A stretch of 64,000 bases of DNA, from positions 1 to 64,000 of the IMG/VR virus record IMGVR_UViG_3300049845_000008; one strand, written 5' to 3'. The DNA is from a virus. The position numbers were made by a program, and so were the translations under genes. This document shows, one piece after another, positions 15,365 to 61,786 of the stretch (positions are counted from its first letter, which is position 1; every line of letters begins with the position of its first letter). A model generated the notes under the pieces. The model saw only the letters and a program-made list of their open reading frames with translations, ran no database searches and was not told where the DNA came from.

Positions 15365-16708
15365 TCAACCGATTAGGTTGACGACTTGGAACTTACGGTA
15401 GTAAGTGTTGGTGCCGTTTGCCAGAGTTCCCGAGACAGCCGTTTCAGCACCCTGCGAAGAGTTCTGGAATGGGTTGCCAACCATGCCGTAGCGGGTCTTG
15501 AACCCGATCTTAGGCTGGAAGGTGTCTGGATCGATTGCGCGAACCATCTGTAGAGGAACGTATGGGCAGTAGAACACACCTGCGTCATAAGGGGTTGGAC
15601 CCTTATAGCCAACGATTACGTAGTCTGCGCCCGTTACCGAGTATGGATCCACGTAGACCTTGAGGCGACCGAATAGCGTACCTGCGAAGGTGTTGCCAGT
15701 GTCGTCAACCGAAAGGTTGGTGTTGTTGGTGAGTGCGCCCTGATAGTCAAGCAGACCGGTCATCGACAGAGCCGATGCAACGTCCGTGCTGACGATCAGA
15801 ATGTTGCCCTTGCCACGGCGAGTGTCCTTAGCAATCTTGTTGCAAGAACGCTCAACAGCGAACAGAAGTCCCTTGAACTTTTCAACTGCCCAACGTCCGG
15901 ACGTATCCGAAGTGCTGTTCAGGTTGAACTGTGCCGAGGTAAGCCCCGTAACACCAACGTTTGCCACTGCGTAAACCGTGCGAATGACTTCGCGGTTGAT
16001 TTCTGCAAGGATTTCGGTGGAAAGGATGTTCGATAGCTCGGCTTCTGCGTCAAGACCGTGAATCGCCTTCAAATCTTGAGCGAGTTCAAGCGTGTACTGT
16101 GCCTTAAGAGCGCGGCTCTTAGCGACAACCGACACACGCTCAATCGTGAAGCCCATTTCTGCCATCGTCGAGCCGAGGTTTTCAGCCGTAGACGTAGACA
16201 TGCCGGTACCGGTGTTAGCCAGAACGACATTAGCAATGTTACCGCCGAGTGCAGCAGCAGTGTGAGTGCCGGTGCCTGCCCATGCAGTGTTAGCTTCGTT
16301 GTAGAACGATTCAGGGGTCGATGCTGTGTTGAGGACAGCGTTGCCAGTGTTAGCATACTTAGCCTGCATCGCGAAGATCAAGCCGGTAGGACCGGTCATT
16401 GGCTGCACGCCGCAAACGTCATATGCCATTAGGTTAGGAAGTGCACGACGAACCAATCCGATTAGGATAGGATCGAAGCCCTTGATGTTGCCTGCGCCAG
16501 TCTCTAGCGAGCCTACGCCTGCGCCGACCGAGTTAGGAACGGCTTCGAACATGTTGCCATAAGCAGCAGCTTCTTCGCGCATTGCCTTTTCTTGGTTCTC
16601 AAGAATGACAGCCGTGACTGCCTTCTTGTATGGGTCCGTGATCTTAGCCAGTTCAGGGTGATCAAGGACTGGTGCCCACTTCTGGACATGAGTTTCTGAT
16701 AGATACAT
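15365..16708 (-). CDS. gp23: Major capsid protein
   Basis: GVQPMTGPTGLIFAM, ELAQDLKAIHGLDAEAEL, YCPYVPLQMV, FQPKIGFKTRYG. Confidence 0.99.
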   Translation of the reverse strand: MYLSETHVQKWAPVLDHPELAKITDPYKKAVTAVILENQEKAMREEAAAYGNMFEAVPNSVGAGVGSLETGAGNIKGFDPILIGLVRRALPNLMAYDVCGVQPMTGPTGLIFAMQAKYANTGNAVLNTASTPESFYNEANTAWAGTGTHTAAALGGNIANVVLANTGTGMSTSTAENLGSTMAEMGFTIERVSVVAKSRALKAQYTLELAQDLKAIHGLDAEAELSNILSTEILAEINREVIRTVYAVANVGVTGLTSAQFNLNSTSDTSGRWAVEKFKGLLFAVERSCNKIAKDTRRGKGNILIVSTDVASALSMTGLLDYQGALTNNTNLSVDDTGNTFAGTLFGRLKVYVDPYSVTGADYVIVGYKGPTPYDAGVFYCPYVPLQMVRAIDPDTFQPKIGFKTRYGMVGNPFQNSSQGAETAVSGTLANGTNTYYRKFQVVNLIG

Positions 16709-16750
16709 TTGGTTTTCTCCGTAAGAGGTTTGGTTTAGTTCGCAGTTGCC

Positions 16751-17992
16751 TTACTTGGCTAGCTGCTTGCTGATTGCTGATACATAACGATCCATACTTG
16801 GGGTTACTTCCTTGGTTTCAGTCTCTACGAGAGCCTGTGGTGCTTCACTGACCTTTTTACCCGATGGGAAGTAATTCTCGCGAATCACTGCGAGCTTCTG
16901 CGAATACTCACCCTCTGTGGTGAACTCTACGCCCTCTGCGAGCGACTTAATCTTTTCGACCTGAACTTCAGTCAGACCTTCGCAAATCTTGCGTAGGACT
17001 TCCTGAGACTTAGACTCTGCCAATGCCTTGACGAGCTTCGTGTTCTGTTCAGCCTGTTCCTTTAGCATTTCCTGAGAGCTAGCAACCTGTGCTGCAAGTT
17101 CTTCTAGGAGGTCTGCCTTCTCTTCTGGAACTTCAATGTAGTGTTCCGTGAAGAGATTCTTGAGTCCTGCCATGAAGTCTTCGGCAATTTCTGCGCGTAG
17201 ACCAGACTCGACTGCAAGCTTGTTGTCTTCCATCCACTGCTCGACCACGTAGTTGAGGTATTCGTCAACCTGCGAGGTCATCTGCTCTTCAAGCTCAGAC
17301 ACGGTGGATTCCATGATTGCTTCGTTCTCAGCCGAAACCTTCTCGACAATCGCTTCGACGCGGCTGCGGACAGCGGCTTCGAAAATCGTCGTTGCTTTGG
17401 TCTTGAACTCTTCCGACAGATTCTCGCCGCTGAATAGAGCGTCGATATCCTGTGCGCAAGAACCCATGTTCTCGGAAACCAGAGCCTTGAGTGCTTCGGT
17501 ACGAGCGGCTTGAACTTCTTCTTCGGTCAACTCAGGAGCTACTTCTTCCTTCACTTCCTTCTTGTCTTCCTCATCTTCGTCCTCGTCCTTCTCATCTTCA
17601 TCGTCATCACACTTCTCGCCCTTGGCTTCGGTGACAACTTCTTCGGATGATTCCTCTTCCTCGGACAGTGCTGCAAGTTCTGCTAGCTCTTCTTCGGATA
17701 GGGTGTCGAGGTATGCGTCGATTTCTTCTTCGGTCAGTTCAGGAAGATCTTCCTCAGAAGACTCTTCTTCCTTAACAGCCTTAGCGGATAGCGGCTGCCC
17801 TTCCTTTGGAGTGACAGCTTCCTTAGCCTTAGCGGAAACCTTTGGTCCGGTTGCCTCTGGCTCAGTTGTAGGGGTTTGTCCACCGAGGTCTTCGGCTCCT
17901 GCGCCGGGACCGGCTTCCAACGGATCCTTCTTGGCAGAGCCAAGGGACGTTGCGAGGATTTCGGCAGCAGATTCAGATAGGGACTTGCTCAT
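16751..17992 (-). CDS. gp22: Prohead core scaffold protein
   Basis: Acidic; LSEEFKTKATTIFEAAV, YLNYVVEQWMEDN, MDRYVSAI. Confidence 0.95.
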   Translation of the reverse strand: MSKSLSESAAEILATSLGSAKKDPLEAGPGAGAEDLGGQTPTTEPEATGPKVSAKAKEAVTPKEGQPLSAKAVKEEESSEEDLPELTEEEIDAYLDTLSEEELAELAALSEEEESSEEVVTEAKGEKCDDDEDEKDEDEDEEDKKEVKEEVAPELTEEEVQAARTEALKALVSENMGSCAQDIDALFSGENLSEEFKTKATTIFEAAVRSRVEAIVEKVSAENEAIMESTVSELEEQMTSQVDEYLNYVVEQWMEDNKLAVESGLRAEIAEDFMAGLKNLFTEHYIEVPEEKADLLEELAAQVASSQEMLKEQAEQNTKLVKALAESKSQEVLRKICEGLTEVQVEKIKSLAEGVEFTTEGEYSQKLAVIRENYFPSGKKVSEAPQALVETETKEVTPSMDRYVSAISKQLAK

Positions 17993-18017
17993 GTTCTAAC
18001 TCCTGTTAGGGTACGTT

Positions 18018-18024
18018 TATTTAG
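18018..18024 (-). promoter_or_regulatory. Late promoter (CTAAATA) for gp22-gp23
   Basis: Recurrent motif followed by an AGGAG RBS. Confidence 0.78.
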
Positions 18025-18029
18025 TAAAC

Positions 18030-18674
18030 TTAAAGTTTTGACAAGAAATTCTCAAAGATTCTCAAGGAGATATCTTCGATCTGTCTAGACTTTGCGTTGC
18101 GGATTTCATCATACATTTGGACAACATCGACCTCACGGACGATTCCATTGTCCCAAACCCATTCCTTACCTTCCATGATGCCTTGTACAAAGGCTCCGGG
18201 TGCGGATGGGTCAGCCACGATATCTGCTGCTGTAGCGAGATAGTAGTCATCTTGAACCATGTTCACGCCATTGACTTCCTTGAGGGAACCCATGCCGCGT
18301 GAAGACACGCCTAGGCTTGCGCCGCCGTCCAGAAGCCCCTTTGCGGTCTTGCCGTATGGGGTTTCAAGGATTTTAGCCTTGCCGTAGAATGTGGATCCTT
18401 CCTGACGTAGATTGACGATCAGGTGGGAAACACGGTCTAGATTGATGGATGGAGAGTCAGGATGCCCCAACTCACCGAATGCTCTGTTCTTAGTGATATA
18501 CTCTTCATTGTAGCGGCGAACTTCCCGCTCAAGAATGGACTTGGAATAGACACGCCCGTTGCGGTTCTTCTGCTCGCCCACTAGGAACGGACCAGTGATG
18601 AAAAGGCTCTTGACACCGTTCTTTTCTTCGGTGAGTACCTTCACATCCTGTAGTGTTTCTGTGATAAGTTTCAT
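18030..18674 (-). CDS. gp21: Prohead protease
   Basis: MKLITE, NRNGRVY, GELGHP, GVSSRGMGSL, DIVADPSAPGAFV. Confidence 0.98.
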   Translation of the reverse strand: MKLITETLQDVKVLTEEKNGVKSLFITGPFLVGEQKNRNGRVYSKSILEREVRRYNEEYITKNRAFGELGHPDSPSINLDRVSHLIVNLRQEGSTFYGKAKILETPYGKTAKGLLDGGASLGVSSRGMGSLKEVNGVNMVQDDYYLATAADIVADPSAPGAFVQGIMEGKEWVWDNGIVREVDVVQMYDEIRNAKSRQIEDISLRIFENFLSKL

Positions 18675-18679
18675 TAGAC

Positions 18680-19006
18680 TTAAACTCCTAGTGACTGTCT
18701 CTTGCGCATGGAACGCTTGCGCTTCATCATGCTTCTTGCCATCTTTGCCTTACGCTTGACCTTGCCCTTTCGTGCTGCTTGCTTACGCTTCATTCTCTCG
18801 GAAGAGGACATGCGAACAAGCTTGCCGCCGCGCATCGTGTAGCCGGGGCGAGTCGAGACTTTCTTCTTTCTCTGAATCTTGCCACCGCGCACACGCGCCT
18901 TGACGATCTTGAAATTGGCTTCGTCCAGACTCGTCGCGACTGCTACCTTGTAGGCTTGCAGCTTCGCTTCGGCAATCTGGTCGAGGTACACAAACAGGTT
19001 ATCCAT
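18680..19006 (-). CDS. gp68: Prohead core protein, highly basic (gp68-like)
   Basis: K/R-rich C-terminus after LDE; position before gp21. Confidence 0.75.
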   Translation of the reverse strand: MDNLFVYLDQIAEAKLQAYKVAVATSLDEANFKIVKARVRGGKIQRKKKVSTRPGYTMRGGKLVRMSSSERMKRKQAARKGKVKRKAKMARSMMKRKRSMRKRQSLGV

Positions 19007-19241
19007 TTGGATACCCCGGCTGTCCTACAATCGGTGCGCCCATGTCCGAGTTTCCTGCGGATCCACCATAAGGAATGGTGAACACCAAATTGTATTTATC
19101 ATTAGTGTAAAGTGCAACATGCTTTCCATCAGGGAAAATACGAATGCCGCGCCGACGCAGAACGAGCATAGGCGCAGGAATGGATTCATCCCTGAGTGCC
19201 TTATCCTCATTCAACTTGGAACGTAGTTCGCGGAACTTCAT
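18999..19241 (-). CDS. Small head-associated protein with capsid-targeting-like N-terminus
   Basis: Probable start MKFRELRSKLNE at 19241, immediately after the gp67-like stop; LVLRRRGIRIFPDG...VALY. Confidence 0.65.
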   Translation of the reverse strand: MKFRELRSKLNEDKALRDESIPAPMLVLRRRGIRIFPDGKHVALYTNDKYNLVFTIPYGGSAGNSDMGAPIVGQPGYPNG

Positions 19242-19242
19242 G

Positions 19243-20163
19243 TTACTTGAATCTCTTGATGCGTTGCAGTGCTTGATTGAATTCGTTTGGATTGGCTTCA
19301 AGCGACTGTCCGAGCGGAACGCCAGACTGCGAAAGCGACTGCACAGCCTGTGCCTTCTGTGCGCCTAGCTTGCGCATGAGCATGTAGCCGGGAGCCTTTG
19401 GATTCTTGGCTGCGAGCTTGGAGAAGTCACGATGCCCTGCGGCTGCTTGCGTAGGGTTGATACCCTTGATTCGAAGCGTCTGCATCGCACGGCGAATGTT
19501 CGTCATGACATTACGGTTGAGTGTAGCATTCGAAGGAGCAACGGCACTCTTCGAACCGCCCGACAGAACTTCGTCTAGCTGCGTGTCTTCGTTGACTCCT
19601 GCTGCTGCCATGAACTTCGCACGATCAAATCGTGGGTTCTGCTGCTTGAACAGGGATGCATGGTGATTAGCCATTTCCTTGCGCTTTTCAGGATGTTCGA
19701 TGCTCTTGATCAGGTCTGCGGTCTGCTGAAAGTGCTTGCGAGTAGGACCGCCTTCTTCAAGGGTTTCTTCCTTGACAGCTTTTCTCTTGACAGCACTGCG
19801 AGCGTCCTTGACGAACTTTGCGCCACGGTCAACATACTCCGCGCCTACACCACCGGGAACGCCACCCATGTTCTTGAAATACTTGCGTGCAGCCCCTTTG
19901 AGTTCCTGACGATGCACGGAAACCTTATGTCCTAGTCCACCCTCATAGTCTTTGCCGATTGCGGAAACGTGACGAGTCCACCGACGCTGCGCGTCCATGC
20001 CCTGCCCTTCCTGTAGATCGTCCATGATGGTCGAAGCGAGTTCTACCTTGCGGACTTCCAGATGATCAGCCAAACGGTCTTGAATCATGGATTCAAAAGC
20101 GGAATTTGCTGCATCCTTGTTGTCTGCTGCAAGAGCGTTGATCAGGTGATTTGCTGTGGTCAT
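19243..20163 (-). CDS. gp67: gp67-like prohead core protein with long C-terminal extension
   Basis: N-terminal approximately 50 aa (AFESMIQDRLADHLEVRKVELASTI) is gp67-like; ATGA overlap with gp20. Confidence 0.7.
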   Translation of the reverse strand: MTTANHLINALAADNKDAANSAFESMIQDRLADHLEVRKVELASTIMDDLQEGQGMDAQRRWTRHVSAIGKDYEGGLGHKVSVHRQELKGAARKYFKNMGGVPGGVGAEYVDRGAKFVKDARSAVKRKAVKEETLEEGGPTRKHFQQTADLIKSIEHPEKRKEMANHHASLFKQQNPRFDRAKFMAAAGVNEDTQLDEVLSGGSKSAVAPSNATLNRNVMTNIRRAMQTLRIKGINPTQAAAGHRDFSKLAAKNPKAPGYMLMRKLGAQKAQAVQSLSQSGVPLGQSLEANPNEFNQALQRIKRFK

Positions 20164-21773
20164 TGTGGAACTCCGGAAGGTATGCCTGTATTTATGTTTG
20201 TTGGACTTCCTGCCTGTGGATTAGAACCCGCAAGAACCTGCTGCTTCGCCATTTCTGCCTGTGCCATGGCTGCGTAGATTTCCTGCTCTTCGGCAATCTC
20301 TTCATCCATCGTTTCGATTTCTTCTTCGGAAAGATGTAGAACGTTCTTCTTGATCCACTTCATCGAATAGTAAGTTCCGACATAAGGAACCAATCCGTTC
20401 AGAAGTGTGACGCGAGAGGTTAGTAGTTCTGCGTCCTTTAGCTCAGAGAAGTTGTTGTCTTCAAGGTAGTCATAGTAGACGAATTCCTTGATCTGATCCC
20501 ATTCTTCGTAGGATGCGATGCCCTTGAGCGCAAGCTGACGCTTCATCAGTTCATCGAACAGGGTAGAGAACTTAGCACGAATACGCTCAACGAACTTGTT
20601 GAACTTCAACTCGTCGCGAGTAATCTCGTTGCTTCTGCCGATGGAGAATCCCTGCTGTGGTTCTAGGCGACCGACTGGCACGCCGAGCGAACGATAGAGA
20701 ACCTGTTGGAAATACTTTACGTCGTCCAACTGTCCAAGTGTCTGTCCACCTTGCAGCGTAGTGATTTCGGTAGACTTACCTTCACCACGGCGAGGAATCC
20801 AGAAGTCTTCGATCATGGAAGTGAACTTACGGTCATCCTTGACTTCGCCAGTGTTCGCATCATAGACGATCTTGTTACGGAACTTCGTCATGATATCGTT
20901 CATGTACTGGTCAGCCTTCATCTTAGGCAGATTACCAACGTCGATGTAGAACACACGGCGTTCTGGTGCGCGGGACAGGCGATAGATTACCACCGCGTCT
21001 TCGATCATTCTAAGTTGATTTAGAGGCTTGATAGCCTTGTGCAGATAGGACAGAACCATGTTGCGTGATACGTCCATCAACCCGGAGTTGATGTTCACCA
21101 CTGCGTCTTCTGCGATCTTCATGGATGCATCGACCGGCGACGACATGACCATGTTGCCACTCGTCATCGACTTGTCGTTGTACACATAGAAGTCTGCGTA
21201 GCCAGAAACAAACTCTACGCCTGTGCGCGGATCCTTGTTCTTGATGACCGTGCGAACCTTGCGGATCTTGCGCGGGTCGAGATAGACAAGTCCTATGATT
21301 CCGTTCTTTGGATTGGTTTCATCTATCTGTACCTGATAGAACAGGCGACCATCGACATACCAACGGCGGAAGATATCGTGTCCATTGTTGTCGAAGTCCA
21401 ACATGCGTAACAGAGACTTGAACTCTTCGCGCAGCATGTTCTTGATGGATTCGGATTGCTTGAGTTCATCAAGCACAATCTCAACAGACATACCCTTTTC
21501 GTCGTGGACGATTGCTTCGTTGACGATTTCATCGATGGCTGCTTCCACTTCGGGTTGCATAGCCATGGTGCGATAACGAGAGATTAGCTCGTTCTCGTTC
21601 TTGAATGCGGACTCTAGATTGAGGTAGGTGCCATAGTAGCCACCGAGAGCGCCTGCGTTGATGACGTATGCGCCATCATCTGTCTGTGGCGGTGCGATAG
21701 CGGGTGCTTGGGCAACTACGGTGTCGTTTTCCGCTGCCCGAGTGATCTGCCAACCGAATAGGTTAATAGCCAT
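20160..21773 (-). CDS. gp20: Portal vertex protein
   Basis: YLHKAIKPLNQLRMIEDAVVIYRLSRAPERRVFYIDVGNLPK. Confidence 0.99.
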   Translation of the reverse strand: MAINLFGWQITRAAENDTVVAQAPAIAPPQTDDGAYVINAGALGGYYGTYLNLESAFKNENELISRYRTMAMQPEVEAAIDEIVNEAIVHDEKGMSVEIVLDELKQSESIKNMLREEFKSLLRMLDFDNNGHDIFRRWYVDGRLFYQVQIDETNPKNGIIGLVYLDPRKIRKVRTVIKNKDPRTGVEFVSGYADFYVYNDKSMTSGNMVMSSPVDASMKIAEDAVVNINSGLMDVSRNMVLSYLHKAIKPLNQLRMIEDAVVIYRLSRAPERRVFYIDVGNLPKMKADQYMNDIMTKFRNKIVYDANTGEVKDDRKFTSMIEDFWIPRRGEGKSTEITTLQGGQTLGQLDDVKYFQQVLYRSLGVPVGRLEPQQGFSIGRSNEITRDELKFNKFVERIRAKFSTLFDELMKRQLALKGIASYEEWDQIKEFVYYDYLEDNNFSELKDAELLTSRVTLLNGLVPYVGTYYSMKWIKKNVLHLSEEEIETMDEEIAEEQEIYAAMAQAEMAKQQVLAGSNPQAGSPTNINTGIPSGVPQ

Positions 21774-22449: not shown

Positions 22450-22456
22450 TATTTAT
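22450..22456 (-). promoter_or_regulatory. Late promoter (ATAAATA) for gp19
   Basis: Recurrent TAAATA motif. Confidence 0.72.
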
Positions 22457-24171
22457 CAGAACTTGCCGACGACTTCTTCAAAGGCGACACCCGTGCGGAC
22501 TGCGACGAAGTTCAACTGGATAAAGTTGATCGACTTAGCAGGCTTGACGTAGATATCACCAATGAACTCGTTACGGTCAATGACTTCTGCGGTGTTGTTG
22601 GTTTCGTCGCAGACTACGCGATAGTCGTAGATACCACGGCGACCCTGAACGGTACGCAGGAATGGCTCAACCAAGTTCACGAACTGTGCGCGAGTGAATT
22701 CATCGTTGAACTCAAACAGCGAGGAACGTGCGGCTTTCGCAATGCTCTTCTCAAGAACGATGAACAGACGGCGAACGTTGATTCGGTCGAATGCGCTTGG
22801 GCGTCCGAGAAGCGTCTTGTCACCATAGAGAAGTGTGCCTTCACCGGGATTCGAAATGACAGGGTTAATGCCATTCTTGTATAGCTCGTCGCGGTTAGCC
22901 TTGTTAGGGCTGTAGGCTAGCTTGATGACGTTCTTGATCTGTCCGCGAGTCAGACCCGCAGGCGAGAACCAAGGGTCACGATCCGTGTCGGTGCGTGCGC
23001 ATAGACCGGCGATATCGCCGTTCAGTGGAATCCAACGGTACGTATCGTTGTACTTGTCGTACATGTACTTCCAACCAGAGTCCATGACTACGTAGGAAGA
23101 CGAGAGGTTCGACAGTGCATTGTTACGGTAGTTGATGACAGCCGTGGTTGCGTCCGAAGCCTGTACGTTTGCGAGTGCAGGCGAGAGGAACAACACTGCG
23201 TCCTTACGGTTCTCAACGGTCGAAGCAGCCGACAGTGCCACAGTCTGTGAGTGTCCTGCACCCATGACTAGGGAAACGTCGATCTTCTCAGCGTTACCGA
23301 TCAGGTCATAGCCGCGAATAACGTCACCATCGGTGAGGGTGATATCCGAGCCATTCGTGAACGTGTAATCATTCTGAGTGTTGTCGTTCTTCGTGGTCTG
23401 GTAGGAAGAGGTTGCGTTAGCGACCGTGTTCCAGTTATCGACAACCGTTCCGGATGCCTGTAGAGGCAGACCGGTGATGAGGATGTACTTCGACTTACGG
23501 AAGATTACGTCCTTCCAGTAGATCGATTCGCCCTGCTCGTTCTTGGCATTCGTAGCCTTGGAGAGATTTGCGAACTTCTCAAGTACCGTGTTAGCAACAC
23601 CCGTGATGGAGCCGTCTTCGTCCACAACGACAAGGTGCAATTCGTCGTTAGCCGTTGCGTTGCCGAAGGAGCTAGACACAAAGTAGGAAGTGCCGGGTGC
23701 CTTATCGAACAGGCTACCGTATGCCCAAGTTCCGAGCGAAGTGTTCGCTAGAAGACTGAGCTTGAGGGTGTTGCCCTTACCACCGGGATAGCGTGCGATT
23801 GCTACCGAGTTGGTAATCGTGTTGAGGGATGAATTAGCTTCATACGCTTCTTCGTTAGGGCAGTACACAGCCGTCATGACACCCGTGTTGGCGTATGCGT
23901 TACGCGAACCGGTGTTTGCTGTACGGACAACGCGGAGGTCGCCTGCGTAAGCAAGGAAGCTTGCTGCGGTGAAGAAGGTCGGTGCGGAGTTGGTCGATGG
24001 CTTACCAAACGTCGAGGCTAGCTCGTTTTCATTGGTAATTTGGCGAACGGACTCAACCGGACCCCAATCGAACGGACCCGCGACGGCTCCCGAAGAAGTC
24101 GATACGGCAGGGATTACCGTAGTTAGATCAATTTCGGAAGTGTTGATGCCGGGAGATACTTGAAATGTCAT
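22456..24171 (-). CDS. gp18: Tail sheath protein
   Basis: FQVSPG..TSEIDLT, PWFSPAG, FDRINVRRLF, KPAKSINFIQLNFVA. Confidence 0.98.
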   Translation of the reverse strand: MTFQVSPGINTSEIDLTTVIPAVSTSSGAVAGPFDWGPVESVRQITNENELASTFGKPSTNSAPTFFTAASFLAYAGDLRVVRTANTGSRNAYANTGVMTAVYCPNEEAYEANSSLNTITNSVAIARYPGGKGNTLKLSLLANTSLGTWAYGSLFDKAPGTSYFVSSSFGNATANDELHLVVVDEDGSITGVANTVLEKFANLSKATNAKNEQGESIYWKDVIFRKSKYILITGLPLQASGTVVDNWNTVANATSSYQTTKNDNTQNDYTFTNGSDITLTDGDVIRGYDLIGNAEKIDVSLVMGAGHSQTVALSAASTVENRKDAVLFLSPALANVQASDATTAVINYRNNALSNLSSSYVVMDSGWKYMYDKYNDTYRWIPLNGDIAGLCARTDTDRDPWFSPAGLTRGQIKNVIKLAYSPNKANRDELYKNGINPVISNPGEGTLLYGDKTLLGRPSAFDRINVRRLFIVLEKSIAKAARSSLFEFNDEFTRAQFVNLVEPFLRTVQGRRGIYDYRVVCDETNNTAEVIDRNEFIGDIYVKPAKSINFIQLNFVAVRTGVAFEEVVGKF

Positions 24172-25858: not shown

Positions 25859-26285
25859 TCTTGATCTGCTTCAACAGGTCTGCGGTGGAGCCGGTGAATA
25901 CAGCCTTGTCAATGTTTACGGTCTGCTGAGTGGGCGCAGGACCGCCTTCTCTGCCGTCGAGCGCCTTCTTCTTTTCGTGCAAGATCATGAGCTTGTCTGC
26001 CATGTCGGACAGATTCTTGAGTAGCCCCGATGCGACTTCATACGCACGCGGATGCTGCGATTCCTTAGCCACCTTGAGGAGTTCTGGCAGTGCGTCCTGT
26101 CCTTGCTCTAGAAGGTCGCGATGAAGATTGCGAGTGTACTCATAGTCATATTCCACATCACGATTAGTGTCTGGAACCGGGTCCGACGCAACCACCACGG
26201 GATGCTCTTCCACCGGGACGACTTCATTCACAACCTCCGGAACGATTTCCAGAATGGTGTTGAGATTCTGTTCTACTTCACTCAT
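25851..26285 (-). CDS. gp16: Terminase small subunit
   Basis: DYEYTR.., ESQHPRAYEV, VFTGSTADL. Confidence 0.93.
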   Translation of the reverse strand: MSEVEQNLNTILEIVPEVVNEVVPVEEHPVVVASDPVPDTNRDVEYDYEYTRNLHRDLLEQGQDALPELLKVAKESQHPRAYEVASGLLKNLSDMADKLMILHEKKKALDGREGGPAPTQQTVNIDKAVFTGSTADLLKQIKNG

Positions 26286-27298
26286 TACATGTACTCTGTG
26301 ATATTGGTGGAGAAGCCAAACGCTTCTTCGATACTGTTGGCAGTGTTAGGAATTGGCTCGACTGTGATGTTGACTAACTGGTTTGGATCCGTGGAATAGG
26401 ACACCACGTTATATCTAGCTCCCGAAGCAGCGCCCACCAGAATAGTATTCGGACGGAAGGTGCCATTGGTATCGTAGACGATCATGGTGTTCGAAGTCTC
26501 ATTCCAATTACGAACATAGGCGGTGGCTGTGGCTTCTGAAACGTCCGGTCCCTGATAGACCAGTTCGTTGTACTTGTAGGTTCCGCAATCCGTATTCGCC
26601 ACGGACGGAGCAAGCACAATCTCACGCAATGGATTAGTCTCAAAGGTGGCATCGTACACGTTCGCGGTGGCTTTCTTGATAGGGCGAATGTCTGCGATAG
26701 GTCCGAAGAGATAGCCCTTTGCGGTGAAGTTCAGCGTCCAGATGATGCTTCGCGTAGACTCAGGATCACCTTCATGCGAGTCATCGTAGGTAATGGAGTT
26801 GAACACAATCGGAACGTCGAGTTTCATGTCGTTGATGCCGACGAAATCCAGAGTCACGGTGTAGTCGGGCGTGAAGTAGGGAAGAATTTGCTCGACCAAC
26901 TGTGCACCGTCTTCCGTGTTACGCACGAAGATGTACAGGTTGAAGTCGAAGTTGTATGGAGTGTAGCGTGCTTTCTTCAAGCCGAGAGGAAGCCCCTCTG
27001 CGAACTGCTCTGAGAAGTTGCTGACCTTGCGCAGCGGATCATACGAGATACCGTTCATTTCGAATGCCATGCGCGGCAGCGTGAGGTTCATTGGATTCAC
27101 GAAGTCGGGTGAACTGCTGATGCGCATGTAGAACTTTTCCTTCGATGCGTACATCAGAGGAACCGTGACACGCTCAATCTCAATGTCCGAGTTGGTGGAC
27201 TGATCGTAGCGCACAAGCCGCATGTCATTGAACAGCGATCCGAAAGCCACTACGAGCTTACGAATGATGCGATGATAGTAGTGAGTTTGTGCGAGCAT
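26285..27298 (-). CDS. gp15: Tail sheath stabilizer / tail terminator
   Basis: YHRIIRKLVVAFGSLFN, TLPRMAFE, QLVEQILPYFTP. Confidence 0.95.
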   Translation of the reverse strand: MLAQTHYYHRIIRKLVVAFGSLFNDMRLVRYDQSTNSDIEIERVTVPLMYASKEKFYMRISSSPDFVNPMNLTLPRMAFEMNGISYDPLRKVSNFSEQFAEGLPLGLKKARYTPYNFDFNLYIFVRNTEDGAQLVEQILPYFTPDYTVTLDFVGINDMKLDVPIVFNSITYDDSHEGDPESTRSIIWTLNFTAKGYLFGPIADIRPIKKATANVYDATFETNPLREIVLAPSVANTDCGTYKYNELVYQGPDVSEATATAYVRNWNETSNTMIVYDTNGTFRPNTILVGAASGARYNVVSYSTDPNQLVNITVEPIPNTANSIEEAFGFSTNITEYM

Positions 27299-28170
27299 TA
27301 TGGGCTACCAAATGGATTAGACTCAGAGAAGTCGAGGTAGTTGTTGGCTTCCTCTTCGATGATTTCGTTGTCGCCAATCTCACCCTGCGGAATCGTCGCA
27401 TTGTAGAGAACGTTGTAGTCGGTCAGTGTGGCTGTCGCATTGGAGGTTAGACCAGTGATGACACCGTTAGCCACGAACTCGCCACGGATATTGCGCAGCC
27501 GCAGAATACCTTCCGGACGATCATACTTCACCACGATGCCAAAGATATTGGATCCGGTGTTCGCACCTTGGAATGCAACCTCACCGCGTTCGAAAGAAGC
27601 GGTCGAAGTTGGAGCCACGTTGTATTGTAGCGAAAGCGCGGATTCGTCACCCATGAGGTCAATCTCTTCGATGCCTGTGTTGATGAACTCGCCGTTGTAC
27701 TTGAAGGTTTCAAGCGAGAGAACATACATGTAAGGAATGACCTTGCCCAACTGATAGAACGATGCGTCCTTTTCCACGAATCTAATTTCCATTAGCTTTC
27801 GCTGAGTCGGCATGAAGATCAGGTCGCCTTCCTTTGGCAGCACGCGCAGGGAAGTCGGCACGTACTTTTCGAACGTGCGACGAGCCATAGCCAATCGTGC
27901 GGTCTTTTCGATCTGCAAACCGAACTTGGAGAAGAATTCCTGCTGTCCACCGAAGTCCTGAAACGTTTCAAGGTACATGTCGATCTTGATGGCTTGATCG
28001 TAATACTTGACCGGATCATCACCAAACAGGGAGTCGAGAATGCCCTGCGAAGTGCGCGGCAGATAGTATACGTCGATGCCATGATTGCGAATGCTCTCAA
28101 TGACAAGATCCTCAAGGAGCATCTGCTCCCGAGTGGCGTTCTGATTGTTGAAATAGACGCTAGTAGGCAT
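27298..28170 (-). CDS. gp14: Neck protein
   Basis: EQMLLEDLVIESI..G.DVYYLPR, SKFGL, PKEGDLI, FYQLGK, DFSESNPFG. Confidence 0.95.
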   Translation of the reverse strand: MPTSVYFNNQNATREQMLLEDLVIESIRNHGIDVYYLPRTSQGILDSLFGDDPVKYYDQAIKIDMYLETFQDFGGQQEFFSKFGLQIEKTARLAMARRTFEKYVPTSLRVLPKEGDLIFMPTQRKLMEIRFVEKDASFYQLGKVIPYMYVLSLETFKYNGEFINTGIEEIDLMGDESALSLQYNVAPTSTASFERGEVAFQGANTGSNIFGIVVKYDRPEGILRLRNIRGEFVANGVITGLTSNATATLTDYNVLYNATIPQGEIGDNEIIEEEANNYLDFSESNPFGSP

Positions 28171-28173
28171 GGC

Positions 28174-28998
28174 TTATCCTACGAGAAAATCTGGTGGCAT
28201 TTCCCATGTGCTTCGAAGTTGTTCTTCTAGGCGAATGATATCGGCTACAGCCTCTTCGTAGATGCCTTGCCCGTTGATGATCATACCTCCCGGCAATGTG
28301 TAGTTACCGTACTTCTTCATGTTCTCGCCCCACTGCTTCTTGATAAGCTGCGTAGAGTATTCCTTGAGCCACTCGTCGTTGTAGACCTTGGGGAAGTCCA
28401 CGGGTTCGATGACGCGGGTGCATTCGATCATGAGGTAGGTGTCAGCCGGAACTTCTGGCGCATTCCAGTGCATATCGATGTAGAGCCTGCCCATGTGCTT
28501 GCTGAACCGAATCGGGTTCTGCCCGATAAGAATCATTTCCAACATGCGAATGTGGGTACGGGCAATCCAGTAATACTGGTAGGATGAACTGGTGAATTCG
28601 TAGAGTTCGTTCAGGCGCAACTGGTAGTTCAGGTCAAAGATATTGAAATTAGCACTAGAGCCGCCACCCGAAATGACTTCGCCGGTCAGAGGGAAGATGC
28701 GATTAACACCGACAACCCCTTCTGGCAGCGGAACCCAACCGTAACTGGAATTAGCGACTGTCGAGTTAGCCGAGGTCGCAGAAGCCACGTTGCTGCCGTT
28801 CGCCAACATGTCCGCAGTCATCTTGATGGCTAGGTAGTCGGGGAAGGTCGCATCGTAGTGGAACTGGACGTACTTCTGCAACGCATCGTCAATCCGGTCA
28901 TCGACCTGATCTTCGTCTACGTTAATGTCAATGACTGGAAAGCCTAGCTTGCGTAGGCAGTAGTCCTTGAGTGATGCTTTGTCGGTTGGTTTTGCCAT
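28174..28998 (-). CDS. gp13: Neck protein
   Basis: LKDYCLRKLGFPVIDINV, WLKEY...KKQWGEN, LPGG..NG. Confidence 0.96.
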   Translation of the reverse strand: MAKPTDKASLKDYCLRKLGFPVIDINVDEDQVDDRIDDALQKYVQFHYDATFPDYLAIKMTADMLANGSNVASATSANSTVANSSYGWVPLPEGVVGVNRIFPLTGEVISGGGSSANFNIFDLNYQLRLNELYEFTSSSYQYYWIARTHIRMLEMILIGQNPIRFSKHMGRLYIDMHWNAPEVPADTYLMIECTRVIEPVDFPKVYNDEWLKEYSTQLIKKQWGENMKKYGNYTLPGGMIINGQGIYEEAVADIIRLEEQLRSTWEMPPDFLVG

Positions 28999-31980: not shown

Positions 31981-32814
31981 TCACTTAAAGTTGTGGCTCA
32001 ATACGCCTTCCATGAAGTATGTATGCGCGTCTTCGACTTCGAAGCTTACCACTTCACCGGCACCTACGTAGTCGATTGCGGTGATGGTACTCTTTCCGAG
32101 TCTCATGCCGACGTTCAGCTTACAGGCGCGTATCAGAGTGTCACCGTCTTCCAGATAGAAACGATGCAAGTCCGAACAGATAATTTCCTTGCCATCATCG
32201 AATCTGATGCGAAACTTGATGGCTTGCTGTATCTTGATGTTGGTGATTGGATAGGAACCCAATTCTTTTGTCGTTTCGTGAACCGCAAGCACTTTCATTC
32301 CGACCTTTAGTTCACCCGCACGGATAGTGGATCCATTCGCAAGCGTGATGCGCATACTTGGATCCGGACAACCCAAATACTCATACTCTGCCGAACATTC
32401 ACAATAGACGTTGGATATTAGTTTTAGAGAATTCTTTTCTCGCAATTGCAACCAAAACCGTATGTTGACTGCGGTAGTGGTTGTATAGATTCCCCACCAC
32501 GGATCTGCACCACAATCAATCCACGTATTTGCGGATGAACCCACAAGAGTTCCTCCCGATTGAGAGAAAAATCTTGCGTTGGCTTGATAGTTGTTTGCGC
32601 CGCCACCCTGCAACCAAATCATCTTCGGAAGTGTAGTGGTGAGTGTATTGGCTGTATAGAACGTGCCATTGCCCGTGATTGTATGTCCTCCACTATTCCA
32701 TATCTTAATGTCAGCCTGAGTTCTCGGTCCCGGTGTCACAGCACCCGAATTATAGTTTCGCGATATGAAAGTCCCGAATCTAGACCACTGTTGCGTGCCA
32801 CGCGCCACCGTCAT
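31981..32814 (-). CDS. Fibre-tip-like domain fused to a C-terminal Hint autoprocessing domain
   Basis: Hint starts at G|[13 protein letters not shown] (Cys149); block B ICSDLHRF; block [24 protein letters not shown]. Confidence 0.8.
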
Positions 32815-53127: not shown

Positions 53128-53134
53128 TATTTAT
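53128..53134 (-). promoter_or_regulatory. Late promoter (ATAAATA) between the two DUF4815 genes
   Basis: Recurrent motif. Confidence 0.65.
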
Positions 53135-57164: not shown

Positions 57165-58778
57165 TTAGAATGATAGAACGAGCCGAATTTGCTCGGTCTG
57201 GTCTGCGTCACGAACGATTTTCGCTCTGTTCTCAATATATAGGAGGTCGCCACTAAACAGCCCGATATCGGGTCCGGTTTCACCTAGAACAGTCGCGGTT
57301 GCGGCTGAAGTTGCGCCCGTCAGGGTCGAACCCACCGTCACATTGCCCGACAAGTTGTTTACGTACAACTCGTTGGTGGATGCGTTCCATGTAACCACGG
57401 TGCCGGTGAAGGTTGCGTCGTTAGGACCGGTTCCGATGTACACGGTTTCGTCGTTCGAATAGTTCGAAGTGCCGGGATCCGTCAGGCTCAACTTAGTGGT
57501 CGAGCGATAGACAGAGCCGTTGGCATAGACACCATTGGCTAGCAATGGGTCACGAATTAGAGATATCTGGCGGAAGTCGAACGGAACTACGTCCGTGCCG
57601 ACAGGGATGGTGTCGCTTTCGGTGCCTTCGAAGCTTACGGCTGTCATGACCGAGTAGCATCCGAGTTCCTTGATAGGGTTGGATCCATGTCCACCGGGAG
57701 GGCTGATCATGGCTTGGAAGATGGCTGCGTTGCCGTTCGACAATTGGTTAGGGTCTACAGCCACGACATTCGCGGAAGTGTATCCGGTGCCGCCGTTCAG
57801 AATATTCAGGTCGGTGATAACACCGGAAGAGATATTCGCAGTGACCACAGCCCCTTCGCCGTCGCCCGTGACCGTGATGATCGACAGGGAGGCTGAGTTG
57901 CCCGATTCGCCATTGTCGAGGAAGTAGCCTGTGCCGCCGTCTTCGATCATGATGATATCAAGGCGTCCGTCTGTTGCGCCTGCAACCACCGAGTTGTCCT
58001 TGATGACCGGCATCCAGTTGTTTGTGAAGAACTTCTGCTTCAAGCCGTAAGGAATCGTGTACAGGTATTTCCACTTATAGCCGTCAGCCGTGAGAATGTA
58101 TGGATTCTCAGGAAGCTGCCCGTCAATGTCGATGGTCGGCTCCGTGGTAGAAGGAATGCCCACGCCCGTATCGGATCCATTGTGCAGGCACTTGAAGACC
58201 TGATCCTTGGAGTTACGGCAGTAGAAGTTGTTGGCAAAGTGTGGATAGGTGTTGTCGATTCGGACGATGGTTCCGTTCAACACAGAATAGGTAAAGGCAG
58301 TGTTGACCACCAGATGCGTCGTATTGACACCGACAACCTGCTTAGTCTCTGCGTTGAGTGTGATCGTGTTACCGACAGAGATTACGCCTGTCCATGTGGC
58401 AGTATTAGCCACGATTAGATTGCCGGTGGCATTGGCTGTGCCAGTGACCGTCAGCTTGTCCTCATGGGAGAATAGCTCAACGTCGTCGTGGTATTCGTCA
58501 TAGGTCGTTCCTGTTACCCAATCGATGCGAGGAACCACCAGTGCGGTATCGGCTGCCGCGACTCTTTTCAGTGCGATCATGTCGCGCCAGACCTGATTAC
58601 GATAGTCCGTGGTGTAGCGAACATCCTCAATCTCGTTTGCGGTTTCGGTGTCGTCTGCTCCCCAACGAATAGGGCGACCAATGCAGAGGTACGTGTTCGC
58701 ATAGGTAGGGAACACGTTCGCTTTGATGATTTCCACAATCTCAAACTTGAGAAGTGGAGTGATGGCTGATTTGCTCAT
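57165..58778 (-). CDS. gp8: Baseplate wedge subunit
   Basis: PRIDW..G..YD.Y, VFKCL.NG, DGYKWKYLYTI, PPGGHG, FRQI.LIRDP, SGDLLYIENR. Confidence 0.88.
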   Translation of the reverse strand: MSKSAITPLLKFEIVEIIKANVFPTYANTYLCIGRPIRWGADDTETANEIEDVRYTTDYRNQVWRDMIALKRVAAADTALVVPRIDWVTGTTYDEYHDDVELFSHEDKLTVTGTANATGNLIVANTATWTGVISVGNTITLNAETKQVVGVNTTHLVVNTAFTYSVLNGTIVRIDNTYPHFANNFYCRNSKDQVFKCLHNGSDTGVGIPSTTEPTIDIDGQLPENPYILTADGYKWKYLYTIPYGLKQKFFTNNWMPVIKDNSVVAGATDGRLDIIMIEDGGTGYFLDNGESGNSASLSIITVTGDGEGAVVTANISSGVITDLNILNGGTGYTSANVVAVDPNQLSNGNAAIFQAMISPPGGHGSNPIKELGCYSVMTAVSFEGTESDTIPVGTDVVPFDFRQISLIRDPLLANGVYANGSVYRSTTKLSLTDPGTSNYSNDETVYIGTGPNDATFTGTVVTWNASTNELYVNNLSGNVTVGSTLTGATSAATATVLGETGPDIGLFSGDLLYIENRAKIVRDADQTEQIRLVLSF

Positions 58779-61700
58779 TATTCCGTTACCTTGATGATTT
58801 CATAGGTCGTTTCGGTGTAGACTGGAACCACCTGATAGACCAGACCGGTGTTCGACGTATTGGCAGTGTTATTTAGGGAGACTACATTACCGGATACGGC
58901 TGTGACCGAATAGAGTTCGATATTTCCGACATTGATTCGAACCACATCGCCGGTCGCGATAAAATCCGAAACCGAGTTAGTGTTGCCGCTGATCTGTAGC
59001 AGGTTATTGCCACTGTTGGTGGACGCCTTGCCCTGTCCAATCATGACAAAGTTGGACTCTACGTTCAGGCTCGTCGGAGAGGTGATGAACTTGATGATCT
59101 TAGCCTGACTGCGCAGCGGCGCGATAGGATCTGCGATTAGAAGTATGTCGCCCACGGCTGCGGTCAATGTGAAGAGGCTGTTCGCGCCCGTGACCACCAC
59201 GTTGTAGGAGTTGGACACCGTGACCGTCGCATTGGCATTGACATACGGAATGGTCGAGACAACCGAAACCGGTGTGATCGATTCCGTAAGCTCGGACTTG
59301 GAGATTGTACGCCCAAGCATGACCATGCCGATTGGGTGGACGATATCCTTCATGGAATTAGAGTAATCCGACAGCGACTTCTCAGACTCAATGACGTAGG
59401 AGTAGTTGTGATACTGCTTGCTGTCCTGTAGTTTCTTGTCCGAAGACAGGAAGCCGTCCGTGTTCAGATAGAATCCGGTAAACTTGATCAGACCGTTGTA
59501 GAACTCTGCGTATCCCTTAGCCTTGCCATTGCCGTAGAACCATGGATTGTCCAAGCCGACCGCACGGATTTCCGCAGGGTAGGAGGAAGGAGCCGGAACC
59601 TTGGCTGCCTGATCGACAAAGAATGTGACACCACCTTCGGAAGTGAATTGCAGAGACTTGTTGAAGCTGCCGAAGCTATTGCCCGAATAGTTGAACAGGC
59701 GTAGCAGGCGAGTCGAACGGTTGTAGGACTTGATGATGCCTTGGAAGGTTGCAGTCTCAAGGGTTGGTCCCTGATAGACACGCTCGCCTTCGGAAAGGGA
59801 TTCTGCTTCCAGAATTCCGTCGATGATCATGTCCACAACCTTGAACGAAACGATAGGCGTATCGATGTAGTCGAATCCACGGCTGATCATGCGAACGTCC
59901 TTGACGCGCCCGATTGCACCCGTTTCGACACCCACTTCGACACCTTCTCCGAAGCCATAGGCTGAGAGTGATGCATTAGCACCACCGGAAGTGGTGACGG
60001 AAACCGACTTGGCGTTGTAGTAGCCTTCACCACGGTTGATGATGGTGGCTGCGACGATGGCACCGTTAGCCCCGACCGTGACGTTACCGGTGAATCCATA
60101 GCCCGATCCGATGACGGTGAGTGCGTCACCGTTGGCATAGCCGGTGCCGGGGTTATCGATGTAGATGTGCGCAATCTGTCCGGTCGCAGAGAGCAACTGG
60201 CGAGAGTTTGCATAGTCCTGCGTGCCATACTCATACGCTTCTGAGAGATACGTATCGTGATAGGACTCAGTTCTGATCACAGGCGTCGAACGGAAGCCAT
60301 AGCCACCGTTGAGAATATTGTAGAGAGCTACGCCACCCGTTTCGATGCGTTCGAAGTTCAGTGCTTGGCAGATCGAAGAGTTGGCATTGATCGACATTTC
60401 AATGTCATCGACGCTGCTGACCGTGTAGTTTCGCAACGAGTTTGTGGTGGTGATGGTGTTGCCAGTGAGAATGGTCAGCGGCTTTGTGTTCTGCACGGCG
60501 TACATGACCACCTGTGCAGGACCGCCCACCCACGCTGCGTTCGATGTGATGATCTTGCCGACGATGTTTGCAGTCTGATAAGAGCCATTAGAATCAGCGT
60601 ACCAGTCTTCGTACTGATGCCACTTGGCTGAACCCGAACCGGGAGTACCTGTGATGGTGAGCAATACGTTGCGAGCGTTGGACGAGAACAGCACCCAATC
60701 GCCCGTGTTGGAGAGTACCTGAGAGGCTGCGTACTCAATCGGCATCTTATCGACAACGATGTATTCAAGGAACTTGGCGTTGGTGTTGGCTGTGTCATCG
60801 AACGTGGTGATACCAGCCACGCGAATGTCCGTGGACAGATTAGCATTAGGATCGTCGCCCACGGAGCGATAGACAATAGCTTCTGTGTTTGAATACGTGC
60901 GGTAGCCATAGCCTCCGAAGACCACGGACAGACCTTCGATGGATCCCACGGTGACGTTGCCGACGACAGCCACGGCATCGTTAGCTTCGGCTGTGGCTGC
61001 AAGACCACCAAAGACGATGACAGGATCACCGACGTTGTAGGATAGACCTCTACGCTTCTGCTGTGGGTCTGTACGAATCTGAGAATCCACCACGATGTTC
61101 GAAATGGATCCGATGATCTTTTCGGAGAAGAGTTGCTCGACGCCGTTTTCATCGACATACGGAATCTCTAGATCTTCACCGTTTGTGAAAGAACGGAAGA
61201 CGTTGGAAACGTACATTTCCAGAATTTCGGTTCCGAACGTGCGGTCGATGGTCTTGTTAGCCGATTCGATGATACACGTAGCCTTGGAGATAGATCCGGT
61301 AGCCTTGTGCTTCTCTAGCAGGTTAACATCGATGTTCTGATTGGCTGCGGATAGCGTCAACTGAAAGGCTTGTGGCAGCTTCCACTTACCGTCCGAGGCA
61401 ATGAGAATCTGCTGCTTCGGATAGTAGACGTTGATATCTTCGCCATAGAGAACGCGGAACAGCCACTTGACAGACTCTTCGGAACCCTTCTTGATGTAGA
61501 ACTCGCGTGCGCCCTTGAGGATCTTGACCAGATCCAGTTCAGAGTTCTCAGGGAAGTACGGCAGGAGTTCCTGCTTGAACAGACGAATGAACGGGTCCAG
61601 AGTTTCGTCCACATCACGATACTTACCAGAGTTCATGATGTGGTAAACGGTATTACCCTTAGTCTCGTCCTCTAGCCAAGTGTAGTAGAGTTCAAGAAAA

Positions 61701-61786
61701 CGCTTGAACTGTGGATGATCTGCGCGAACGAAATCCGGCAGTTGCCGGTTGATCAACGCGGATACTGTTTTCTCTGCTGTTGCCAT
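58778..61786 (-). CDS. gp7: Baseplate wedge subunit (gp7-like)
   Basis: QLPDFVR.DHPQF..FLELYY.WLE, FY..KGSEES...LFR.LYGE, LQDS..Y.NYSYVI, VHP.GM; lies between gp6 and gp8. Confidence 0.75.
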   Translation of the reverse strand: MATAEKTVSALINRQLPDFVRADHPQFKRFLELYYTWLEDETKGNTVYHIMNSGKYRDVDETLDPFIRLFKQELLPYFPENSELDLVKILKGAREFYIKKGSEESVKWLFRVLYGEDINVYYPKQQILIASDGKWKLPQAFQLTLSAANQNIDVNLLEKHKATGSISKATCIIESANKTIDRTFGTEILEMYVSNVFRSFTNGEDLEIPYVDENGVEQLFSEKIIGSISNIVVDSQIRTDPQQKRRGLSYNVGDPVIVFGGLAATAEANDAVAVVGNVTVGSIEGLSVVFGGYGYRTYSNTEAIVYRSVGDDPNANLSTDIRVAGITTFDDTANTNAKFLEYIVVDKMPIEYAASQVLSNTGDWVLFSSNARNVLLTITGTPGSGSAKWHQYEDWYADSNGSYQTANIVGKIITSNAAWVGGPAQVVMYAVQNTKPLTILTGNTITTTNSLRNYTVSSVDDIEMSINANSSICQALNFERIETGGVALYNILNGGYGFRSTPVIRTESYHDTYLSEAYEYGTQDYANSRQLLSATGQIAHIYIDNPGTGYANGDALTVIGSGYGFTGNVTVGANGAIVAATIINRGEGYYNAKSVSVTTSGGANASLSAYGFGEGVEVGVETGAIGRVKDVRMISRGFDYIDTPIVSFKVVDMIIDGILEAESLSEGERVYQGPTLETATFQGIIKSYNRSTRLLRLFNYSGNSFGSFNKSLQFTSEGGVTFFVDQAAKVPAPSSYPAEIRAVGLDNPWFYGNGKAKGYAEFYNGLIKFTGFYLNTDGFLSSDKKLQDSKQYHNYSYVIESEKSLSDYSNSMKDIVHPIGMVMLGRTISKSELTESITPVSVVSTIPYVNANATVTVSNSYNVVVTGANSLFTLTAAVGDILLIADPIAPLRSQAKIIKFITSPTSLNVESNFVMIGQGKASTNSGNNLLQISGNTNSVSDFIATGDVVRINVGNIELYSVTAVSGNVVSLNNTANTSNTGLVYQVVPVYTETTYEIIKVTE

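Follow-up and report, generated by a model that had tools for sequence, protein, structure and literature searches.

In the portions of two reports on which we draw (PMC9614988, PMC5408694), the chlorovirus PBCV-1 is described as glycosylating exposed asparagines of its capsid protein Vp54 with a virus-encoded cytoplasmic machinery, at the sites NTGT, NTET, NTAT and NIPG rather than at the N-x-S/T sequon. In this study, we analyzed a stretch of 64,000 bases (the window; bases 1-64000 of the 73,810-base IMG/VR virus record IMGVR_UViG_3300049845_000008, a record rated 41% complete) that holds the late structural module of an uncultured T4-like phage, and found an excess of the dipeptide alanine-asparagine (Ala-Asn, AN) in its virion proteins. 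This excess is real, is under selection at the level of the peptide, is tied to the exposed parts of the virion and is diagnostic of one T4-like branch. Its most likely cause, in a judgment that falls a little short of an even chance, is a lineage-specific building habit of beta-rich outer modules without chemical modification. Should the motif instead be an acceptor for sugars, chlorovirus capsid N-glycosylation would be the closest known system.

The chlorovirus parallel has two parts. Virus-encoded glycosyltransferases (GTs) are present here too, one of GT-A type in the window and one of GT-B type in 5/5 complete genomes of the clade, with a putative link to the virion as substrate. The Asn context may also be atypical, with N-T raised only after Ala (ANT.T, 5 vs 1.0 expected; NT.T, 13 vs 9.0; these are small numbers, and ANV and ANG are equally raised). 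The systems differ in that the glycans of PBCV-1, a virus of eukaryotic algae, have been proven chemically, whereas the phage motif is known from sequence alone. Tailed phages can also glycosylate their own capsid and tail proteins via phage-encoded GTs, as Freeman et al. reportedly found in 2023 for mycobacteriophages, whose virion glycans on capsid and tail are said to be O-linked and whose GT genes adjoin structural genes. Here, by contrast, the GT-A gene lies in the replication module, the GT-B gene lies beside RNase H, and the motif centers on Asn. The sequons of bacterial N-glycosylation, N-x-S/T for HMW1C/NGT and D/E-x-N-x-S/T for PglB, are likewise short linear Asn motifs on exposed proteins. 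The phage sequons differ from those of HMW1C/NGT in being raised only behind Ala, and the GT41 family to which the original prediction, an earlier reading of this DNA, had pointed as a possible modifier was not found: GT41/HMW1C (PF13844) matched 0/1 window contig, which is only about 41% complete, and 0/5 AN-rich complete genomes in a search that did match the control genomes. Finally, a small residue followed by Asn and then by Gly or a beta-branched residue ends or starts strands, as in type I turns with a G1 bulge (A-N-G) and in Asx turns; related patterns are the Asn ladders of beta-solenoids and the pentapeptide repeats A(D/N)LXX. A repeat fiber in the window resembles these in showing AN as a periodic element. 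Such preferences are general, whereas the bias described here belongs to one clade and is missing from homologs in sister clades, and AN sites show no special secondary-structure class. No pentapeptide-repeat family was detected in the virion proteins (Pfam, E<=0.001), and the fiber repeats are 50 amino acids (aa) long, not 5. No paper on an AN bias, or on tailed-phage virions that carry N-linked glycans, came up in literature searches.

The original prediction had held that AN, SN and GN pairs and N-x-S/T sequons are dense on outward-facing virion proteins of the window and not on internal or enzymatic ones. We counted motifs in a virion set of 25 proteins (13,118 aa) and an internal or enzymatic set of 22 proteins (6,387 aa); the first virion set counted gp19 and a 146-aa open reading frame (ORF) at 30552-30992, and in later sets gp19 was treated as internal and the block at 29041-31700 was dropped. 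The 25 virion proteins contain 358 [AGS]N dipeptides vs 242 expected, and the excess is entirely Ala-Asn. AN occurs 189 times vs 81 in global shuffles (z = 13.6) and 97 in 10-aa local shuffles (z = 11.0), so that composition alone does not explain it, and it stays in excess when the fiber at 47110-49740 is left out (149 vs 74.5 in 20-aa local shuffles, z = 9.5). The 22 internal or enzymatic proteins carry 16 AN vs 19 expected, as had been proposed. GN (90 vs 91) and SN (79 vs 71) are not enriched as dipeptides in the virion proteins of the window, which leaves AN as the part of the predicted pair class that stands there, and TN (71 vs 97) and NN (50 vs 65) are depleted. Sequon enrichment was not borne out: against composition-matched shuffles, z for N-x-S/T never exceeds 2.2 in any external virion protein, and the pooled count of N[^P][ST] without the fiber is 155 vs 142.0 (z = 1.3; 20-aa local shuffles). 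A preceding Ala makes the difference for sequons: with it they number 43 vs 14.4 and without it 112 vs 127.4, and N-T that lacks it is at expectation (71 vs 72.9). A-N-[T/S] occurs 55 times vs 14.4 (z = 10.4), with ANT at 31 vs 8.1, ANS at 24 vs 6.3, ANV at 23 vs 7.3 and ANG at 21 vs 6.9. Before Asn, Ala alone is raised (148 vs 64, fiber excluded); Val, Ile, Leu and Phe are at expectation. Asn content as such is higher in the virion proteins than in the internal ones, and this richness is ordinary, since a T4-type phage shows the same.

Several results place the bias in the peptide and bear on a neutral origin, in which composition, low-complexity inserts, internal repeats or the shared ancestry of a few AN-rich segments would account for the counts. 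The hexamer GCNAAY occurs 187 times in frame vs 8 and 16 times in the other two frames of the same genes, and this frame specificity means that the bias acts on the peptide. Because the hexamer is frame specific, all four Ala codons are used at AN sites and the AN excess shows no correlation with GC content (range 31 to 52%; Spearman about 0, n = 77), we rejected a cause at the DNA level. Part of the signal does have a neutral look. The fiber at 47110..49740 (minus strand), which combines a collagen-like stretch with a C-terminal S74 intramolecular-chaperone domain, has 38 AN vs 12.3 expected, mostly from internal 50-residue tandem repeats (...AN-F-AN-V-TL-AN-T...) that appear in its gene as a repeat at 48683..49026 with a period of 150 nucleotides (nt), 2.3 copies and 77% matches; owing to this repeat, its AN sites are not independent. 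An insert in gp13 is of low complexity, and some AN sites are conserved family columns, such as four in the gp8 consensus. However, the excess survives both local shuffling and removal of the fiber, and giant cyanophage structural proteins of like composition lack it. Micro-duplication was rejected outside the repeat fiber, as AN sites do not resemble one another in their DNA flanks more than other Asn codons do (3.45 vs 3.24 of 12 nt). Spread through shared modules is insufficient at the level that BLAST can detect, since most of the excess lies outside such modules (169 observed vs 72.3 expected) rather than inside them (18 vs 5.9).

AN sites also turn over. Of a mean of 7.3 AN per sheath homolog, only 2.0 coincide with AN columns of the window protein, and conservation is lower for the Asn of AN (0.34) than for the remaining Asn (0.50). 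Misalignment of variable regions may exaggerate this apparent turnover, but it leaves the following coupling test unaffected. In variable columns, Ala at i and Asn at i+1 occur together 222 times vs 160.3 in the gp8 family (rank 1 of 172 dipeptides) and 263 times vs 201.9 in the sheath family (rank 5 of 158), and N-T is likewise coupled. Turnover and coupling together led us to reject plain inheritance of conserved sites. We regard a neutral origin as largely refuted and give it little credence.

The location of AN within proteins follows the exposed, variable parts. The tail sheath gp18 (22456..24171, minus strand; identified by Pfam) has 10 AN vs 4.7 expected. Eight of the 10 lie in an insertion at residues 84-314 (2.3 expected), which is flanked by conserved parts, an N-terminal piece and the C-terminal domains, and the core at residues 315-571 has 2 vs 2.0; for the sheath, the proposal that the motifs lie mostly in variable segments is correct. 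The AF2 model of the sheath (pLDDT 84.5) matches T4-type sheaths at Z 34-39, and the minimal sheaths of pyocin and AFP align with only about 300-320 of its residues. The extra residues of larger sheath proteins form outer domains. The AF2 model of the baseplate wedge protein gp8 (57165..58778, minus strand; AN 10 vs 3.1) has a pLDDT of 90.1, and in the two models taken together 8/20 AN sites are at or beside a strand end.

The distribution of the bias among phages was followed in complete genomes and in 87 IMG/VR loci that surround relatives of gp8 and the sheath. In the relatives, AN is raised in the external families gp23 (104 vs 58.1), gp18 (555 vs 356.5), gp15 (95 vs 34.6), gp7 (117 vs 43.0), gp8 (35 vs 13.8) and DUF4815 (67 vs 38.3), and it is below expectation in the internal families gp22 (21 vs 45.7), gp21 (6 vs 23.9), gp20 (53 vs 74.8) and gp19 (40 vs 77.6). 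AN heads the list of over-represented dipeptides in 120 gp8 homologs from a large protein database (929 vs 354). The external virion proteins of the cultured phages Cr30 (62 vs 32.6; other proteins, 14 vs 14.0) and DLP_6 (65 vs 33.5; other proteins, 4 vs 13.3) are AN rich, and those of phiM12 (52 vs 34.5) and Melnitz (43 vs 29.5, or 1.46x) are intermediate. The bias was not seen in the T4-type, cyanophage, pelagiphage, pf16 and Desulfovibrio phage genomes compared; ACG-2014f, for example, has 27 vs 35.8 in external virion proteins, and Desulfovibrio phage 7757 has 64 vs 59.3 in ORFs of 400 aa or more. The AN bias thus marks one clade, made up of the window contig, its uncultured relatives and the cultured phages Cr30, DLP_6 and phiM12. 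When all ORFs of 11 genomes were scanned without preselection, individually significant AN excess was found in 7/30 ORFs of the window, 4/51 and 3/58 of the genomes G001 and G002, 4/42 of Cr30, 1/52 of DLP_6 and 0/49 of phiM12, which gives 19/282 in GT-positive genomes vs 0/264 in the five others. Clade-wide, AN[TS] is raised 2.15x, AN[VI] 2.78x, GN[TS] 2.0x and SN[TS] 1.8x, and the reverse order [TS]NA is at 0.89x; all five are about 1 in the other genomes. The signature at clade level is therefore directional, a small residue, Asn and then a beta-branched residue or Ser, and the broader "small residue-Asn" wording of the original prediction is partly recovered at this level, as a tripeptide outside the window. 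Its central claim, that one motif recurs across unrelated outward-facing virion proteins beyond composition, holds for a motif that is frame specific, coupled and subject to turnover.

In this clade, capsid, sheath, neck, baseplate and fiber proteins prefer Ala immediately before Asn in their exposed and rapidly evolving parts, usually with Thr, Ser, Val or Gly after the pair. In the structural habit that we favor as the cause, the Asn would stand at loop/strand junctions and in tight turns, with the small Ala packed before it and a beta-branched residue or Gly behind it, and new surface loops would acquire the habit afresh as they form. We infer this structural reason in part from the residues that follow AN, which are not those of a sequon: ANV and ANG are raised about as much as ANT and ANS, and AN[VI] more than AN[TS], as fits strand entry and hairpin turns. 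The repeat fiber, with AN as a periodic beta-repeat element, argues for the same cause, as do weaker AN excesses in the absence of GTs, in Melnitz, in the VrlC homolog of Desulfovibrio phage 7757 (13 vs 6.4) and in the T4-type proteins gp34 (15 vs 7.6), gp7 (8 vs 3.9) and gp36 (4 vs 1.7). The position of the GT-A gene in the replication module and not in the late operon, and its distant homologs in phages without AN excess, point the same way.

A number of observations weigh against this explanation. A general folding rule would not predict the pattern, since homologs of similar composition in sister lineages are unbiased: external virion AN is 59 vs 52.0 in the T4-type phage Shfl2, where the comparison with T4-type orthologs proposed earlier accordingly shows the bias to be missing, about 61 vs 51 in HTVC008M and about 44 vs 52 in S-M1 (both summed by hand), and 17 vs 19.7 in pf16. 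In the gp8 and sheath models, the secondary structure of AN sites and of other Asn is alike (n = 20 vs 71), with 4 vs 13 in helices, 7 vs 22 in loops next to a strand and 4 vs 8 in mid-strand, so that no single secondary-structure role for AN is seen. The excess is not limited to the shared modules that BLAST detects, and before Asn only Ala is raised in the window, while Val, Ile, Leu and Phe are not. Even as a folding habit, the motif would be a clean clade-diagnostic signature of exposed virion domains, and it would show that sister phage lineages whose proteins are homologous can diverge sharply in short-motif grammar.

A second explanation, which we consider possible though unlikely, is that A-N-[T/S], or perhaps A-N-x, is the acceptor of a phage-encoded cytoplasmic glycosylation that lays a glycan coat on exposed virion asparagines. 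The candidate enzymes emerged from a comparison of gene content in which 2,090 ORFs from 11 genomes were grouped into 1,427 families. Five families occur in at least 4/5 AN-rich complete genomes and in 0/4 AN-poor genomes. Three of them are a peptide deformylase, a small metalloprotease-like protein and a gp33-like factor; only the remaining two are also missing from Melnitz, and both are GTs. The first is a predicted GT-A nucleotide-diphospho-sugar transferase (1434..2249 in the window, minus strand; phrog_1574, 5.5e-59), a clade-specific candidate modifier that lies between the peptide deformylase and gp45 sliding clamp genes in the replication modules of the window, Cr30 and DLP_6. Profile searches found it in the window, Cr30, DLP_6, phiM12, G001, G002 and G005 and in 0/6 others, with a marginal 8e-4 fragment match in a T4-type phage; by sequence it has no solved relative. 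The second is a GT-B enzyme (Glycos_transf_1, phrog_2170) detected by profile in 5/5 AN-rich complete genomes and 0/6 others, counts that cover complete genomes, the record of the window being only about 41% complete. In Cr30 (2793-6580), G001 and G002 (L180:8844-12772) it belongs to a cassette with a SIS isomerase, a GHMP kinase, a nucleotidyltransferase and an NAD epimerase, which reads as a putative pathway of nucleoside diphosphate (NDP)-heptose synthesis and could feed the two GTs in some members. The GT-B gene lies beside RNase H, and its neighbor in DLP_6 is a GT29-like (sialyltransferase-like) gene.

Several features of the motif suit glycosylation. Two GTs alone among the 1,427 families occur in the AN-rich genomes and are missing both from the AN-poor ones and from Melnitz, ORFs with significant excess are confined to GT-positive genomes, and the motif is directional, restricted to outer proteins, coupled and turning over, with N-T and N-x-S/T raised solely after Ala; the chlorovirus capsid sites provide a precedent for virus-encoded glycosylation outside the sequon. 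On the other hand, all GT-positive AN-rich genomes fall in one clade of a core-gene tree, and the correlation is therefore a single phylogenetic contrast. The search for independent contrasts was negative: distant GT-A homologs occur without AN excess in ACG-2014f and in the Pelagibacter podophage HTVC027P (L186:39666-41508; virion AN 43 vs 37.5). A reading of Desulfovibrio phage 7757 as a loss within the clade was rejected, since it is a separate deep lineage. The GT-A homolog of HTVC027P adjoins another glycosyltransferase inside the tail/structural module. Melnitz reaches its intermediate level with neither GT, ANV and ANG are enriched as much as ANT and ANS, and a known Asn-glycosylating family was not found (GT41, 0/6). 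The neighborhoods of the enzymes, with GT-A beside the clamp and deformylase genes and GT-B beside RNase H, would also fit glycosylation of DNA or of the host envelope, and the passages we consulted in two reports read such phage GTs as modifiers of DNA or of the host envelope and O-antigen (PMC7029224, PMC12801897).

If the motif were nevertheless a glycosylation site, A-N-[T/S] with its key Ala at -1 would be a new N-glycosylation sequon, possibly heptose based and served by GT-A and GT-B in the Cr30/phiM12/DLP_6 branch, an outcome that we rate as improbable. It would make these the first N-glycosylated tailed-phage particles and would establish a glycan coat in proteobacterial T4-like phages. 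Host recognition, particle stability and phage engineering would all be affected, and GT and heptose genes that are now read as modifiers of lipopolysaccharide or DNA would gain a function. Three cultured phages have both the motif and the enzymes, which opens the question to a direct test.

A third possibility is that a carpet of exposed Asn with small or hydroxyl flanks tunes hydration, stickiness toward polysaccharides or resistance to aggregation in the habitat of the hosts. Such a surface chemistry would suit an excess that is found only on outward-facing proteins and in the outer insertion of the sheath, that changes its positions while keeping its density and that is independent of GC content. 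A bulk property needs no fixed order, yet AN[TS] and [TS]NA part ways clade-wide; Ala alone is raised before Asn, and a ligand or binding-site pattern was not found. We think surface chemistry improbable, more so than glycosylation.

The late operon of the window offers one more set of enzymes. Between the neck gene gp13 and the fiber genes lies a block (29041-31660) of three sulfotransferase-like paralogs (29041-29694, 29995-30552 and 30989-31660; Pfam/PHROG) and a 99-aa HExxH gene (29691-29990), all on the minus strand. The paralogs match one another at pairwise E values of 1e-22 to 1e-29, and their N-termini resemble the loop that binds 3'-phosphoadenosine 5'-phosphosulfate (PAPS). At the syntenic place, HTVC008M carries four 2-oxoglutarate (2OG)/phytanoyl-CoA dioxygenase genes. 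One could suppose that the Asn is hydroxylated by a 2OG-Fe(II) oxygenase, as the original prediction had considered, or that the site is linked to the sulfotransferase-like enzymes, given their place between neck and fiber genes and the frequent occurrence of 2OG oxygenases at that place in relatives such as HTVC008M. However, HTVC008M is AN poor and rich in 2OG oxygenases, and the Asp/Asn beta-hydroxylase family (PF05118, Asp_Arg_Hydrox) is present in just 1/5 AN-rich genomes; among the 48 window proteins scanned against Pfam (E<=0.001), no Asp/Asn hydroxylase family was found. The sulfotransferase block was rejected as a cause since its genes were not found by tblastn in the loci L001-L092, which share the AN bias, and sulfotransferases are not known to act on Asn. 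Hydroxylation or sulfation thus appears very improbable.

The window as a whole has a T4-type layout by Pfam and PHROG scans. We called 54 ORFs, and the minus strand carries all long ORFs. The replication and early genes comprise the gp45 clamp, the GT-A-like gene, a MoxR/CobS-like ATPase, a CobT-like protein, peptide deformylase, gp46/47, gp55 and UvsW; the late module comprises gp23, gp22, gp21, gp20, gp19, gp18, gp17, gp16, gp15, gp14 and gp13. A block of six small genes is present as well, and fiber and baseplate genes follow, with collagen-like fibers, a two-ORF VrlC/DUF4815 protein, gp8, a gp7-like protein and gp6. The contig has no close cultured phage by the gp23 and gp7 comparisons: gp23 is 57.6% identical to that of Pelagibacter phage HTVC008M and 52-55% to those of cyanomyoviruses, and gp7 is at most 29-38% identical to that of any cultured phage.

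AN counts for single proteins, compared with shuffles of each protein, are two to three times expectation in nearly every tail, baseplate and fiber protein; all of the following genes are on the minus strand. The major capsid protein gp23 (15365..16708; Pfam Gp23, 5.5e-132) has 6 AN vs 3.5, four of the six within residues 119-164, and the peptides originally quoted from it (YANTGNAVLNTAS, GGNIANVVLANTG and LANGTNT) are all present, as are TANTG, YANTG, EANSS, LANTS, GNATAND and VANAT in gp18. The head genes at 16751..21773 serve as internal controls without AN excess (gp22 scaffold, 0 vs 0.9; gp21 protease, 0 vs 0.7; gp20 portal, 1 vs 2.1); the same block holds two small head proteins and a 306-aa protein with 4 vs 2.2. 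Further internal or enzymatic proteins are gp19 (0 vs 1.0) and gp17 (2 vs 2.0). The neck and sheath-completion proteins gp15, gp14 and gp13 (26285..28998) have 3 vs 1.7, 3 vs 1.0 and 4 vs 1.0, and gp13 bears the AN-rich insert LANGSNVASATSANSTVANSS, also present as quoted.

Two collagen-like fibers (32811-36464 and 37276-40113; Pfam Collagen, PHROG tail fiber) have 10 vs 4.0 and 5 vs 1.8, and a 250-aa protein between them (36512-37264) has 5 vs 2.8. The tail proteins that follow have 16 vs 8.7 (40597-44154), 4 vs 1.6 (44169-44588), 1 vs 0.5 (44590-45510, collagen-like), 3 vs 0.9 (45510-45839) and 9 vs 2.6 (45884-47107, glycine rich). The giant VrlC/DUF4815-type baseplate protein (Pfam DUF4815) is split into two ORFs, at 53134-57153 (15 vs 6.9) and 49962-53099 (16 vs 8.7), which match consecutive parts of phrog_358 (positions 6-1121 and 1320-1586), and the gp7-like baseplate wedge protein (58778..61786) has 14 vs 5.3. 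The gene for a small virion protein at 49744-50004 overlaps the downstream VrlC/DUF4815 ORF, and DLP_6 likewise has two annotated VrlC genes. In a 277-aa protein (31981..32814), the N-terminal part is AN rich (5 vs 1.1) and the C-terminal part holds a Hint/intein-like domain, with a PT-HINT match at 1.5e-4 and weak intein N- and C-terminal motifs; its ORF lies directly upstream of a collagen-like fiber ORF and overlaps it.

Some further features of the window were noted. Among the dipeptides of the module, QG is over-represented most strongly (324 vs 102), and proline-free G-x-Q/G-T-x triplets occur in the four collagen-like fibers at 32811-36464, 37276-40113, 44590-45510 and 47110-49740 (minus strand). 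A MoxR/CbbQ-type AAA_5 ATPase and a 782-aa protein (phrog_459, with a weak CobT match), encoded at 3186-4601 and 5620-7968 on the minus strand, resemble the cobS/cobT-like pair of marine T4-like phages, and the peptide deformylase gene lies at 8048-8620. Between UvsW and the gp19-like tube gene (14702-15250), two long ORFs on opposite strands overlap, at 14190-14723 (plus) and 14193-14645 (minus).

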